From a virus (taxonomy: Duplodnaviria; Heunggongvirae; Uroviricota; Caudoviricetes), in IMG/VR virus record IMGVR_UViG_2541047844_000011: a DNA stretch of 6,328 nucleotides. The stretch is one strand, 5' to 3'. Of the stretch, positions 1 through 6,328 are shown in pieces. The position numbers and the translations under genes were made by a program. The stretch's first letter is position 1. Every line of letters starts with the position of its first letter. The notes under the pieces were generated by a model. That model was not told where the DNA came from, did no database searches, and worked only from the letters and a program-made list of their open reading frames with translations.

Positions 1-3667
<3,667 letters not shown>

Positions 3668-3686
3668 ATTTTAAAACCCAAATTCG

Positions 3687-3714
3687 GGCACCAGAAATGG
3701 TGCCTTTTTTATTT
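3687..3714 (+). terminator. Rho-independent terminator-like hairpin downstream of J
   Basis: ggcacc (3687..3692), loop agaaat, ggtgcc (3699..3704), followed by tttttt at 3705..3710 and then attt. It begins 20 nt after the J stop. Confidence 0.6.
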
Positions 3715-3725
3715 GTGGAGTGAAT

Positions 3726-5747
3726 ATGGCAGTACAGATTTCAGGTGTGCTGAAAGACGGTGCAGGAAAACCGATACAGAACTGCACCATTCAGCTCAAA
3801 GCAAAACGTAACAGCACCACAGTTGTGGTGAACACGGTGGCCTCAGAAAATCCGGATGAAGCCGGACGTTACAGCATGGATGTTGAGTATGGCCAGTACA
3901 GCGTCGCCCTGCTGGTTGAAGGTTTTCCGCCTTCACATGCCGGGACCATCACCGTGTATGAGGATTCTAAGCCGGGGACATTGAATGATTTTCTGGGCGC
4001 TGCAACAGAAGATGATGTTTGTCCGGAGGCACTGTATCGTTTTGAAAAGATGGTGGAAGAGGCGGCACGCAACGCTGAAGCCGCCTCTCAGAGCGCAGCG
4101 GCAGCAAAGAAATCAGAAACAGCAGCGGCATCGTCCAGGAACGCGGCGAAAACATCAGAGACGAATGCAGGTAACAGCGCGAAAGCGGCAGCTTCTTCAA
4201 AAACAGCCGCACAAAACGCAGCAACAGCGGCAGAACGTTCAGAGACAAATGCCCGTGCGTCAGAAGAAGCCTCCGCAGACAGTGAAGAGGCTTCCCGCCG
4301 TAATGCAGAGTCAGCCGCTGAAAATGCCGGAGTCGCCACCACAAAAGCGCGGGAGGCCGCAGCAGACGCAACAAAGGCCGGGCAGAAAAAGGATGAGGCT
4401 CTGTCGGCAGCGACACGAGCTGAAAAGGCGGCAGACCGCGCAGAAGCCGCAGCGGAAGTGACTGCAGAGCCCTGTGCGAATATAGTGCCGCCGCTGCCTG
4501 ATGTGTGGATACCGTTTAACGATTCACTGGATATGATTACGGGTTTTTCGCCATCTTATAAAAAGATAGTTATTGGTGACGATGAAATAACAATGCCAGG
4601 CGACAAGATTGTTAAGTTTAAACGTGCTTCAACAGCAACGTATATTAATAAGTCCGGCCAACTCAAGCTTGCTGAAGTTGACGAACCGCGATTTGAGCGC
4701 GATGGCTTATTGATTGAAGGACAGAGGACAAATTATCTGAGGAACTCAAATAAACCAGACTCATGGACTGTTCATTCCGCACTGAATAAAACATTTGGCA
4801 CTGATAAACAGGGGTTCAATTATGCCACGGTGACACCCACGGAAAGTATAGTGGGAACAACAGGTGGCTATACTGTGCATGGTGTGGTTGCAGCAGACAG
4901 ATTCCCGCTGGCAAGTGGTGAATGTTTCACTTTTTCGTGCCGGGTTAAAGGCGCTAAAGCACGATGCAGGTTAAGAGTTTCAGTTATTATTGGTGGAACA
5001 GATACCTTCTCTGCTGACTCTTATCTTGATCTGGATACCCGGATCGCAACAGTAAGCGGTAATACATCCCTTATAACAGCCAAAGCTGAACAACAGGGCG
5101 AGTGGACCTACTATGAGGCCACTTATACAGCTAATACGGACATTGATACCGTTAACTGTGCTTTTTATATGACAAATAAAATAAGTAATGAGCCATTCTA
5201 TGATGACTCAACATTAACCATGACGACGCCGCAAATTGAACTGGGCAATACGGCATCGTCATTTATTGTAACTACAATGCCAACAACACGCGCAAGTGAT
5301 GTAGTTACTATCCCATCGCAGAATAACCTGTCAACACGGCCTTTTACGGTATTGTGCGAAGTAAGCAGGAACTGGAGTACACCGCCCAATGTTGCGCCAA
5401 GGATATTTGATGTTGGAGGGCACAGTATTGATGATAATTATTTATCGCTGGGGTTTGTTGCAACAGGAAAGATAAGCGCCAACGTAGGAATGGTTCAGCC
5501 ACAAATTGCCTCAGATGGAGAAAGGTTCATTGTGGGTGTGAGAGCTAAATCTGATTTATCAGTAAATGCAATATGCAATGGTAATTATACAACAAACCTT
5601 AATGGTAAAATATTTGGAGTTACAGCAACATCGTACCGGTTTGGTGGGCAGACCGCAGCAGGAACGCGTCATTTGTTTGGACACATCAGAAATTTCAGAG
5701 TCTGGTTTAAAGAATTAAATGACAGGCAAATCAAGGAGGCAGTATGA
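3726..5747 (+). CDS. stf: Side tail fibre protein: lambda Stf-like N-terminal domain and Ala/Ser-rich repeat shaft with a non-lambda, low-GC C-terminal distal module (673 aa from ATG 3726)
   Basis: GGAG at 3717..3720 precedes ATG 3726. The N-terminus (MAVQISGVLKDGAGKPIQNCTIQLKAKRNSTTVVVNTVASENPDEAGRYSMDVEYGQYSVALLVEGFPPSHAGTITVYEDSKPGTLNDFL) closely matches the lambda Stf (orf-401) N-terminus from memory. It is followed by degenerate Ala/Ser-rich repeats (KTSETNAGNS..., ERSETNARAS...) as in lambda Stf. From about nt 4470 (aa ~250, ...AEPCANIVPPLPDVWIPFNDS...) composition turns AT-rich and the sequence has no Stf or T4 gp37-like His-rich motifs. The extreme C-terminus (GTRHLFGHIRNFRVWFKELNDRQIKEA) resembles the end of LamG / concanavalin-A-like jelly-roll domains. 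Confidence 0.85.
   Translation: MAVQISGVLKDGAGKPIQNCTIQLKAKRNSTTVVVNTVASENPDEAGRYSMDVEYGQYSVALLVEGFPPSHAGTITVYEDSKPGTLNDFLGAATEDDVCPEALYRFEKMVEEAARNAEAASQSAAAAKKSETAAASSRNAAKTSETNAGNSAKAAASSKTAAQNAATAAERSETNARASEEASADSEEASRRNAESAAENAGVATTKAREAAADATKAGQKKDEALSAATRAEKAADRAEAAAEVTAEPCANIVPPLPDVWIPFNDSLDMITGFSPSYKKIVIGDDEITMPGDKIVKFKRASTATYINKSGQLKLAEVDEPRFERDGLLIEGQRTNYLRNSNKPDSWTVHSALNKTFGTDKQGFNYATVTPTESIVGTTGGYTVHGVVAADRFPLASGECFTFSCRVKGAKARCRLRVSVIIGGTDTFSADSYLDLDTRIATVSGNTSLITAKAEQQGEWTYYEATYTANTDIDTVNCAFYMTNKISNEPFYDDSTLTMTTPQIELGNTASSFIVTTMPTTRASDVVTIPSQNNLSTRPFTVLCEVSRNWSTPPNVAPRIFDVGGHSIDDNYLSLGFVATGKISANVGMVQPQIASDGERFIVGVRAKSDLSVNAICNGNYTTNLNGKIFGVTATSYRFGGQTAAGTRHLFGHIRNFRVWFKELNDRQIKEAV
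4080..4470 (+). repeat. Low-complexity Ala/Ser/Glu/Thr-rich coding repeats within the tail fibre shaft
   Basis: Recurring nucleotide motifs (gcagcggcagc; tcagagacgaatgc at 4156..4169 and tcagagacaaatgc at 4239..4252) encode degenerate peptide repeats. The region is open in several frames on both strands, which accounts for the overlapping ORFs in the six-frame track. Confidence 0.5.
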
Positions 5748-6022
5748 AAGATTTAACTTTGAAATTTCCTGGTAACAGAGAGTTTAAATCCTTCCTGTCA
5801 TCTCTTGACTGGGAGGAGGATGAAGACCTCCAGAATAAACTGTTAGTCGATGAAATTGGTTTCACCTACACAGAAACAGGGGTAACAGAAGAGGGAGAAC
5901 CTGTCTGTGTCCGGAATGACGGTTATTTTGTCAACATTCGCATTCTTGATGACTTGTTTGATGTTTCTGTATTCTCTGATTATGTCGTGGAGCTGGAAAC
6001 ACCGCTTCGGGAATGGAGCTGA
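5744..6022 (+). CDS. Hypothetical small acidic protein (92 aa), translationally coupled to the tail fibre gene
   Basis: The ATG at 5744 overlaps the fibre stop at 5745..5747 (ATGA), and a strong SD (aaggagg, 5733..5739) sits 4 nt upstream. The product has about 22 Asp/Glu against 8 Lys/Arg, including a DWEEDEDLQ run. It is AT-rich like the fibre C-terminal module. I do not recognise a homolog. Confidence 0.7.
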   Translation: MKDLTLKFPGNREFKSFLSSLDWEEDEDLQNKLLVDEIGFTYTETGVTEEGEPVCVRNDGYFVNIRILDDLFDVSVFSDYVVELETPLREWS

Positions 6023-6034
6023 AAGGAGGAAATA

Positions 6035-6328
6035 ATGGATATAAGCCCCTTACTTCATGCACTTTGTGCTGTGGCTGCGCAGATACTGGTTGGTCTTTTT
6101 ACCGGAAACTGGGCTTACGGAGCGATAGCCGGTTGTACGTTCTTCATTGCGCGTGAACATACCCAGGCAGAATATCGCTGGATTGAAATGTTCGGGCATG
6201 GCAAGCGAATGAATATGCCGTGGTGGGGCGGTTTTGATCCGCGAGCTTGGGATGTGGCAAGCCTGATGGATTTTGCTGTGCCGGTGGTGGCGTGTCTGCT
6301 GGTCTGGCTGTTGGTTAATCGTGGGTGA
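6035..6328 (+). CDS. Hypothetical small integral membrane protein (97 aa, 2-3 predicted transmembrane helices)
   Basis: A strong SD (aaggagga, 6023..6030) precedes the ATG at 6035, 12 nt after the upstream stop; the TGA falls at 6326..6328. Hydrophobic segments are LLHALCAVAAQILVGLFTG, WAYGAIAGCTFFIA and FAVPVVACLLVWLLV, with a Trp/charged-rich loop (EYRWIEMFGHGKRMNMPWWGGFDPRAWD). There is no lipobox and no signal-peptide-like positive N-region. I do not recognise a homolog. Confidence 0.65.
   Translation: MDISPLLHALCAVAAQILVGLFTGNWAYGAIAGCTFFIAREHTQAEYRWIEMFGHGKRMNMPWWGGFDPRAWDVASLMDFAVPVVACLLVWLLVNRG

Follow-up and report, generated by a model that had tools for sequence, protein, structure and literature searches.

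Gene and locus

The window, by which we mean the whole 6,328-nt stretch of Caudoviricetes DNA that was analysed (IMG/VR record IMGVR_UViG_2541047844_000011), ends with a small gene set directly behind the tail fibre genes, and the question that it raises is what such a gene does for the phage or for its host. The original prediction read its product as host-interaction cargo and offered superinfection exclusion, receptor masking or membership in a larger defence locus as possible roles. The gene is among the commonest unannotated prophage genes in E. coli. It is known in kind, as a phage accessory membrane gene, and its family itself is uncharacterised, unusually conserved and extremely common.

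Four plus-strand genes stand in a row in the window, encoding the central fibre J, a side tail fibre, a 92-aa protein and a 97-aa protein (Table 1). The 97-aa ORF is 294 bp long. It opens with the ATG at 6035, no earlier start codon being present behind the in-frame stop, and it closes with a stop codon that ends at the last base of the window. The stop of the 92-aa gene lies at 6020–6022, which leaves the 12-nt gap that had been described, and the strong Shine-Dalgarno sequence noted along with it was found within this gap.

Table 1 Features of the window and of the 97-aa protein
Feature	Position	Strand	Basis or remark
97-aa CDS, predicted inner-membrane protein (PHROG 1443 family)	6035..6328	+	ORF call, profile match, homologues, AF2, dN/dS
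Shine-Dalgarno AAGGAGG	6023..6029	+	5 nt 5' of ATG; inter-context homology begins here
Lambda-type central fibre J	185-3667	+	Gene list of the window
Intrinsic-terminator-like hairpin after J, GGGCACCAGAAATGGTGCC then T-run	3686..3705	+	Hairpin scan; likewise annotated in phage 21
Side tail fibre, 675 aa	3720..5747	+	PF08400 N-terminus; C-terminal head-spike-fibre / CBM-like domain (phrog_1419)
92-aa acidic protein, phrog_1361	5744..6022	+	ATGA overlap of its own start with the fibre stop
Helix 1, residues 4-23	6044..6103	+	Holds conserved H8, Q16
Helix 2, residues 26-53	6110..6193	+	G/A-rich membrane part 26-39 (G29, C34), then signature
Helix 2 family signature R40-E41-H42-T43-Q44-A45-E46-Y47-R48-W49-I50	within 6110..6193	+	
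Aromatic/charged loop, residues 54-73, GxGKRxNMPWWGGFDPRxW	6194..6253	+	Predicted cytoplasmic, with N-terminus
Helix 3, residues 74-96	6254..6322	+	Contains D79, P83

Protein family and database searches

The 97-aa protein matched phrog_1443 over its full length (residues 1–96 against profile positions 1–96 of 97, E = 2.4e-58). A set of 5.8 billion proteins yielded 577 related protein clusters at E ≤ 1e-3, with 442 representatives at 50% identity, nearly all of them stand-alone proteins of about 90–110 aa. The dN/dS values among E. coli phage copies of the gene were 0.15–0.29, indicating that it is under purifying selection. The ORF is a genuine gene, far beyond a chance ORF.

PHROG 1443 carries no functional annotation. 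The Pfam scan of the 97-aa protein gave nothing at E ≤ 1 except a sub-threshold PhoR transmembrane match, and the NCBIfam scan gave no match; the PADLOC-DB 2.0 defence models gave 0 families at E ≤ 1 for the 97-aa and 92-aa proteins. Nothing significant was obtained when 47 diverse relatives were scanned singly against the Pfam, NCBIfam and PADLOC models. A PDB sequence profile search with the family returned 0 matches, Foldseek against viral structures returned nothing at E ≤ 0.001, an Rfam scan of the window returned nothing, and a literature search found no paper on the 97-aa/PHROG 1443 family. Membership in the T4 Imm, HK97 gp15 or P22 SieA families was supported by no Pfam, annotated PHROG, NCBIfam or PADLOC match; by sequence, the family is uncharacterised and appears unrelated to any studied exclusion protein. 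Longer relatives were start-site or read-through artefacts, or contained a polar loop insertion of ~45 aa in which no domain could be recognised, and fusion (“Rosetta stone”) clues to function were thus absent among them.

Predicted structure and topology

Kyte-Doolittle hydropathy peaked at residues 4–24 and 76–96, with a weaker G/A-rich segment at residues 25–39. In agreement with this, the AlphaFold2 model, for which a 31-sequence alignment was the input, contained helices at residues 4–23, 26–53 and 74–96 with a mean pLDDT of 94.2, as expected for the small multi-pass membrane protein of 97 aa that had been proposed. The aromatic/charged loop of that proposal lies between helices 2 and 3 (REHTQAEYRWIEMFGHGKRMNMPWWGGFDPRAWD). 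The C-terminus is N-R-G, with no charged C-terminal tail. A cleavable signal peptide, mentioned in a SignalP note in the phage 21 record, was rejected because helix 1 contains H8 and Q16, which are conserved throughout the family.

An alignment of 31 relatives, 57–93% identical, has 26 invariant columns, including H8, Q16, G29, C34, R40-E41 and T43-Q44-A45-E46-Y47-R48-W49-I50 in the first two helices, followed by G56, R58, M61-P62, G65-G66-F67-D68, W72, D79 and P83. In a wider set 28–57% identical to the query, E41 and W72 are invariant and H8, G29, R40, Q44, A45, E46 and P83 are conserved at >90%. The polar residues of the family are conserved like an active or binding site. In the model, helix 2 runs on from its hydrophobic part into the R-E-x-x-Q-A-E-Y-R segment, and helix geometry, rather than coordinates, would place H8 at the start of helix 1, R40/E41/Q44 in helix 2 and D79 at the start of helix 3 on one membrane face.

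Across 47 diverse members, the mean number of K + R was 6.1 on the side of the N-terminus and loop versus 0.6 on the opposite side. By the positive-inside rule, the sole basis of this assignment, the conserved polar pocket is probably cytoplasmic and the protein N-in/C-out. The phage 21 record disagrees with this orientation, citing a TMHMM result of two TMDs with N-in and C-in that would make the loop periplasmic.

Downstream context and expression

From position 92 onward the window is 99.9% identical to, and colinear with, temperate coliphages of the phage 21 group, such as Lambda_2E9, so that their complete genomes can stand in for the sequence beyond the window. In both Lambda_2E9 and phage 21, sitD-sitC-sitB-sitA starts 91 nt after the 97-aa gene on the opposite strand and is followed by a few small ORFs, attP and int. 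The extension towards int and att that the original prediction called for thus encountered the sitDCBA operon, then int and attP. The convergent sitDCBA operon means that the 97-aa gene closes the late operon and does not open a longer defence locus: its predicted place as terminal gene of the tail fibre operon was confirmed in the complete genomes, and the suggested larger defence locus gave way to a transporter operon, in keeping with the lack of a PADLOC match for the 97-aa gene.

Past the J hairpin, the side tail fibre gene is the first and the 97-aa gene the last of one transcription stretch. Given this terminator-like hairpin, the downstream genes need read-through by late antitermination or a promoter that escaped detection. 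A consensus scan of the surroundings of the 97-aa gene (L001, 6900–7800) found 0 promoter-like and 0 terminator-like sites; such scans are no evidence of function, and a weak promoter could escape them. The 91-nt downstream spacer has a modest fold (z = −2.25) and no T-run. In the phage-21-type context the gene therefore looks like a late gene dependent on antiterminated read-through. In phage Gally, the gene is preceded by a strong terminator with a 9-bp stem and by 190 nt of AT-rich sequence that includes a promoter-like site (9/12), and it could be an independent unit there. In JEP4, its start overlaps the tailspike stop (ATGA). The two arrangements suggest that the same cassette may be wired either way, independently or at the end of a late operon.

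Mobility of the gene

Pairwise blastn of the Lambda_2E9 locus against seven other contexts showed similarity beginning at −13 to −9 relative to the ATG and running to +242 to +369, with unrelated flanks beyond. Since homology starts at the ribosome-binding site, the gene moves as a discrete cassette; the 3' part of the gene from ~nt +242 is the variable, recombining cassette end. The GC content is 52% in the gene versus 41–42% in the 3' end of the fibre gene and the 92-aa gene. The gene directly upstream also changes among 80 near-identical copies, being the 92-aa gene in 42, a gene for a 234-aa fibre-domain protein in 24 and one for a 346-aa protein in 13. Discrete boundaries in varied neighbourhoods and a deviant base composition are both features of a moron; a promoter and terminator of its own, which a moron would also have, were not seen in the scan of L001 described above.

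A frameshifted remnant of the gene occurs in virulent HC6-like coliphages, in which the fibre is kept, and one E. coli prophage region has a copy with an internal stop that is annotated as a pseudogene. In these two cases the gene has decayed, apparently where it was superfluous, and it is dispensable for lytic growth. Intact copies are found in lytic jumbo Aeromonas phages.

Distribution in phages and chromosomes

The gene is present in at least 1903 of 5426 complete E. coli genomes (at least 35%), with a median of 2 copies and a maximum of 7, and all of these copies are annotated “hypothetical protein”. Because genomes with 2–7 copies exist, the gene does not keep other carriers from lysogenising the cell. 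In IMG/VR, 434 viral contigs contain the gene, and many predicted prophages stop exactly at its stop codon.

In phages, the gene usually stands right after a receptor-binding gene, of whatever type. Its predecessors include a head-spike-type side fibre, sometimes joined by the 92-aa gene and one more fibre-domain gene; an S74 “pyocin knob” fibre; the tailspikes of the P22-like Gally and JEP4, where it is just 5' of int; a P2-like collar fibre in an Aeromonas salmonicida prophage, with a 4-nt overlap with the upstream gene; a 2520-aa J-like protein in Comamonas; and, in Leclercia, Comamonas kerstersii and a Desulfovibrio MAG, tail fibre or tailspike proteins. In the myovirus phiHAP-1 it lies between the fibre-assembly gene and the sheath gene, and in a diversity-generating retroelement (DGR) it lies between the VR of the mtd-like target gene and avd. 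Exceptions include a Mu-like prophage, where it precedes the portal gene, and the jumbo Aeromonas phages, where it follows a helicase/terminase gene. The P22-like slot between tailspike and int is a known site of lysogenic-conversion or O-antigen-modifying genes, and the phiHAP-1 slot is that of P2 Z/fun. Cargo of the host-interaction type, and not a structural part, is what the original prediction had expected; the mosaic cassette starting at the ribosome-binding site, the GC jump and the conversion-gene slots agree with it. Very probably, then, the 97-aa gene encodes an accessory, mobile, inner-membrane protein and is not a structural or lysis gene.

The family extends across alpha-, beta-, gamma- and delta-proteobacteria, and some members are chromosomal. 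On the Aeromonas rivipollensis chromosome, a relative lies between pirin and RIO1 kinase genes with no phage gene within 8 kb, and the pirin neighbour recurs in four Aeromonas loci. On sphingomonad chromosomes, a relative follows the NAD-dependent DNA ligase gene ligA in three to four genomes. These orthologues with no phage nearby point to a cellular function. For a phage cargo gene, it is unusual to combine adjacency to receptor-binding genes in lambda-, P22- and P2-like and DGR-bearing prophages, exchange as a cassette and an apparently enzyme-like pocket with chromosomal orthologues.

Proposed exclusion at the inner membrane

The adjacency to receptor-binding genes, the conversion or exclusion slots, the dispensability for lytic growth and the prevalence in prophages favour a role in phage-host conflict over the cell surface or phage entry. 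Our preferred reading, which we hold tentatively at a probability of roughly one in three, is that the 97-aa protein acts on a conserved host membrane target and excludes incoming phages. In the proposed mechanism, a horizontally mobile, moron-type gene, the last on the Q-dependent late transcript, would use a strong ribosome-binding site of its own to yield a three-helix inner-membrane protein with helices 1 and 2 as a hairpin. A polar pocket (H8, R40, E41, Q44, E46, Y47, R48, D68, W72 and D79) at one membrane face, predicted to be cytoplasmic, would engage a conserved inner-membrane component of the host. Further phages would then fail to enter the infected or lysogenic cell at the inner-membrane step, as with T4 Imm or HK97 gp15 and not by outer-membrane receptor masking. 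The topology, host target and exclusion phenotype in this scheme are those that we infer for the protein.

Receptor masking, the other surface role initially put forward, is disfavoured. The protein is predicted to reside in the inner membrane with its loop in the cytoplasm, and it retains 57–65% identity between E. coli phages, Comamonas and Aeromonas despite unrelated receptor-binding proteins. The inner-membrane site, the probably cytoplasmic pocket and the indifference to receptor-binding type argue against masking and fit a block at the inner membrane.

The known exclusion and conversion systems offer partial likenesses. Cor is an outer-membrane lipoprotein that blocks FhuA, and the Cor of T1, phi80 and N15 shares with the 97-aa protein that it is a small envelope protein encoded beside receptor-binding genes. 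The 97-aa protein differs from Cor and T5 Llp in being a three-helix integral membrane protein with no signal peptide and no tie to one receptor; C11 follows H-A-L and is not kept in homologues, and a basic N-region is lacking, so the initial view that it lacks a lipobox and is not Cor-like stands. Members of the Lom/Ail group resemble it as cargo after J in lambdoid phages, and lom is present in some relatives (e.g., L081). Lom, however, is an outer-membrane beta-barrel of ~200 aa, whereas the 97-aa protein has an all-helical model (pLDDT 94) and no Pfam Ail/Lom match, and here too the expected dissimilarity was upheld.

HK97 gp15 and T4 Imm are small inner-membrane superinfection-exclusion proteins that block DNA entry. 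Like them, the 97-aa protein is small, helical and predicted to lie in the inner membrane, and its gene is a non-essential extra among or after tail genes. It differs in having no sequence relation to them, in belonging to a far more conserved family with chromosomal orthologues, and in that a lysogen promoter is not detectable in the window. P22 gtrABC, Sf6 oac and P2 Z/fun share its genomic slots (Gally and JEP4; phiHAP-1), but the 97-aa gene is single and small, with no sequence similarity to them and no glycosyl- or acetyl-transferase domain.

Several observations count against exclusion. Exclusion proteins are usually lineage-specific and fast-evolving, and the cross-genus identity of the 97-aa protein is high by that standard. 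Its chromosomal orthologues lie away from phages; up to seven copies occur in one genome, where other carriers were not barred; and intact copies persist in the lytic jumbo phages. With a terminator-like hairpin after J and no promoter-like site near the gene, expression in the lysogen may also be doubtful.

Alternative readings

The main tension with exclusion comes from the cross-class conservation and the chromosomal orthologues, which suggest that the protein acts biochemically on a conserved target. They are the basis of a second reading, in which the protein is a small membrane enzyme or regulator of a conserved envelope-precursor pathway at the inner membrane, e.g., lipid turnover or the synthesis of undecaprenyl-phosphate-linked glycans. 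In phages it would serve as a generic lysogenic-conversion or “receptor shut-off” function, and the task of the chromosomal copies in the cell would be the same. Residues H8, R40, E41, Q44, E46, Y47, R48, D68 and D79, kept across proteobacterial classes, resemble a catalytic or ligand site; three-transmembrane-helix enzymes such as DgkA exist; the chromosomal orthologues are syntenic; the gene shares the slot of the O-antigen-modifying genes of P22-like phages; and many of the receptor-binding proteins encoded next to it belong to types that bind glycans (tailspikes, S74 fibres, a CBM-like domain). However, the protein has only 97 residues, the databases searched gave no sequence or fold similarity to any enzyme, and conserved partner genes are lacking. 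At least one partner receptor-binding type is Mtd-like (the DGR target), and Mtd classically binds a protein. Sphingomonads are not known to have LPS, so that the target cannot be LPS-specific. We regard this reading as unlikely, though next in probability to exclusion. Its most far-reaching form appears more doubtful still: the protein would be a small pan-proteobacterial membrane enzyme or regulator whose H/E/E/D pocket, on the cytoplasmic side, targets a universal precursor of the envelope, e.g., in the undecaprenyl-phosphate carrier cycle, and phages of at least five tail architectures would have captured it and placed it beside their receptor-binding genes as a generic module that switches off surface receptors, whichever receptor is used. 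Phage exclusion or envelope remodelling, if true, would bear on host-range prediction, E. coli phage therapy and the interpretation of polylysogeny.

The chromosomal orthologues in housekeeping neighbourhoods and the strong conservation could also be read as host-fitness cargo with no part in phage-phage conflict, that is, a membrane stress, ion or metal homeostasis factor comparable to sitABCD. The gene adjoins the sitABCD Mn/Fe transporter cargo in phage-21-type genomes, and its H/E/D cluster could bind metal. This linkage to sit, however, is present in only 9 of the 80 near-identical copies, the promoter that such cargo would use in a lysogen is not detectable in the phage-21-type context, which makes lysogen expression doubtful, and this reading does not account for the close placement of the gene beside receptor-binding genes in phages of different types. 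We give this reading little weight.

Coupling to the late genes raises the further possibility of a lytic helper, which might adjust membrane energetics or the timing of lysis as a holin-like, antiholin or viroporin-type protein, or might keep progeny from being lost to the dying cell. Class I holins have three transmembrane helices and ~100 aa, so the 97-aa protein resembles them in size, helix number and late expression, and it is closely coupled to and co-transcribed with late genes (12-nt gap in the window; ATGA overlap in JEP4). The intact copies in lytic jumbo phages are also consistent with this role. Against it, no endolysin is adjacent in the window or in the phage contexts examined, the charged C-terminal tail of holins is missing, and no holin family matched significantly, a holin model being reached by only one of the 47 relatives (E = 0.0036). 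Unlike holins, the family has a long conserved polar loop and chromosomal orthologues. The gene has decayed in the virulent HC6-like phages, and phage 21 already possesses a pinholin/SAR-endolysin cassette. A lytic role is improbable.

Least probable is a factor for the maturation or assembly of tail fibres or tailspikes: it would explain why the gene directly follows receptor-binding genes in six or more phage lineages, in some of them within the operon, and the translational coupling suggested by the overlaps in JEP4 and the Aeromonas salmonicida prophage, but a 77–100% identical protein follows structurally unrelated fibres and tailspikes, P22-type tailspikes are not known to need a chaperone, the HC6-like phages lost the gene and retained the fibre, orthologues occur on chromosomes with no phage nearby, and the protein is predicted to be membrane-embedded.

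The 92-aa neighbour

The 92-aa acidic protein encoded just upstream comprises 45 clusters, which come from Escherichia and Shigella only. Its AlphaFold2 model is a confident small alpha/beta fold (pLDDT 90) for which a PDB fold search gave no match. A two-gene system of the 92-aa and 97-aa proteins was considered and rejected, as their distributions differ and the 92-aa gene is upstream in little more than half of the near-identical copies counted above (42/80). The restricted distribution and variable linkage indicate that the 92-aa protein is not an obligate partner of the 97-aa gene. The 92-aa gene always follows a head-spike-type fibre, even where another fibre gene separates it from the 97-aa gene, and we assigned its product to the fibre module.

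The fibre module and its accessory genes

The features located in the window and in related loci are listed below. The C-terminal domain of the side tail fibre matched the model of the GTA "head spike fibre", with a weak match to CBM_4_9, and reference records start the gene at the ATG six bases 3' of the GTG at position 3720. No gene for a Tfa-type chaperone was found 3' of the side tail fibre. The 92-aa acidic protein that follows the fibre was found in Escherichia and Shigella only, and its structural model, a confident one, is an alpha/beta fold that includes a long beta hairpin and has no match in the PDB; the protein is probably an accessory protein or chaperone of the fibre module.

Features of the window, of the Comamonas nitrativorans locus (L039) and of phages identical to the window (L001)
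Feature	Location	Remarks
Side tail fibre	window 3720-5747	prophage fibre N-terminal domain, Ala/Glu-rich stretch and C-terminal domain
92-aa acidic protein	window 5744-6022	phrog_1361; start codon overlaps side-fibre stop codon
VR in DGR target gene	L039 5810-5928	
bAvd	L039 6305-6691	
TR	L039 6697-6815	89% identical to VR
Reverse transcriptase	L039 6990-8054	
sitABCD Mn/Fe ABC transporter operon	L001 7721-11170	convergent; lies beyond the 3' end of the window in identical phages

Decayed copies of the 97-aa family were found 3' of fibre genes. The virulent coliphage HC6 and its relatives carry a frameshifted, unannotated remnant of the family (L079 3965-4162). The remnant lies directly 3' of an S74-type tail fibre gene, which suggests that the HC6-like fibre module was acquired from a temperate phage and that the trailing gene decayed afterwards. 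In E. coli EC21Z-078, a further copy in a prophage at dusA was pseudogenised with an internal stop. Beyond this copy, in the same region (L082 4501-6795), genes for a reverse transcriptase and a SLATT-domain protein lie on the opposite strand; the two may be a defence pair. The position 3' of the fibre genes appears to be a hot spot for accessory genes.

Relatives of the 97-aa protein

Three relatives of 140-146 aa (P0145, P0186 and P0247) belong to a subfamily with a polar, Tyr/Glu-rich insertion of approximately 45 residues in the conserved loop, placed between FGK and the R-x-N-M-P-W-W-G-G-F-D motif. The C. nitrativorans locus encodes a complete diversity-generating retroelement (L039 4785-8054), in which a member of the 97-aa family is an insertion flanked by the variable gene and avd. 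The Pigmentiphaga humi locus (L041) has the same layout.

Window boundaries and cargo beyond them

In phages identical to the window, the sitABCD operon is cargo placed between the late operon and int. Of 80 near-identical copies of the gene for the 97-aa protein, only nine were linked to it. Many predicted prophages among the IMG/VR contigs (L084-L163) stop exactly 3 nt past the last matched codon of the 97-aa gene, as does the window itself, and prophage-boundary callers seem to cut at the end of this gene. In complete phage genomes, cargo such as sitABCD is located beyond the gene, together with int and attP, and all of these would be dropped by such a cut.

At the other end, window positions 1-94 are a 95% copy of positions 2522-2615, an internal segment of J. 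This copy replaces the end of gene I that lies 5' of J in the complete phage genome Lambda_2E9, which is otherwise 99.9% identical, and the duplicate at the contig start resembles either a chimera from assembly or a scar left by recombination.
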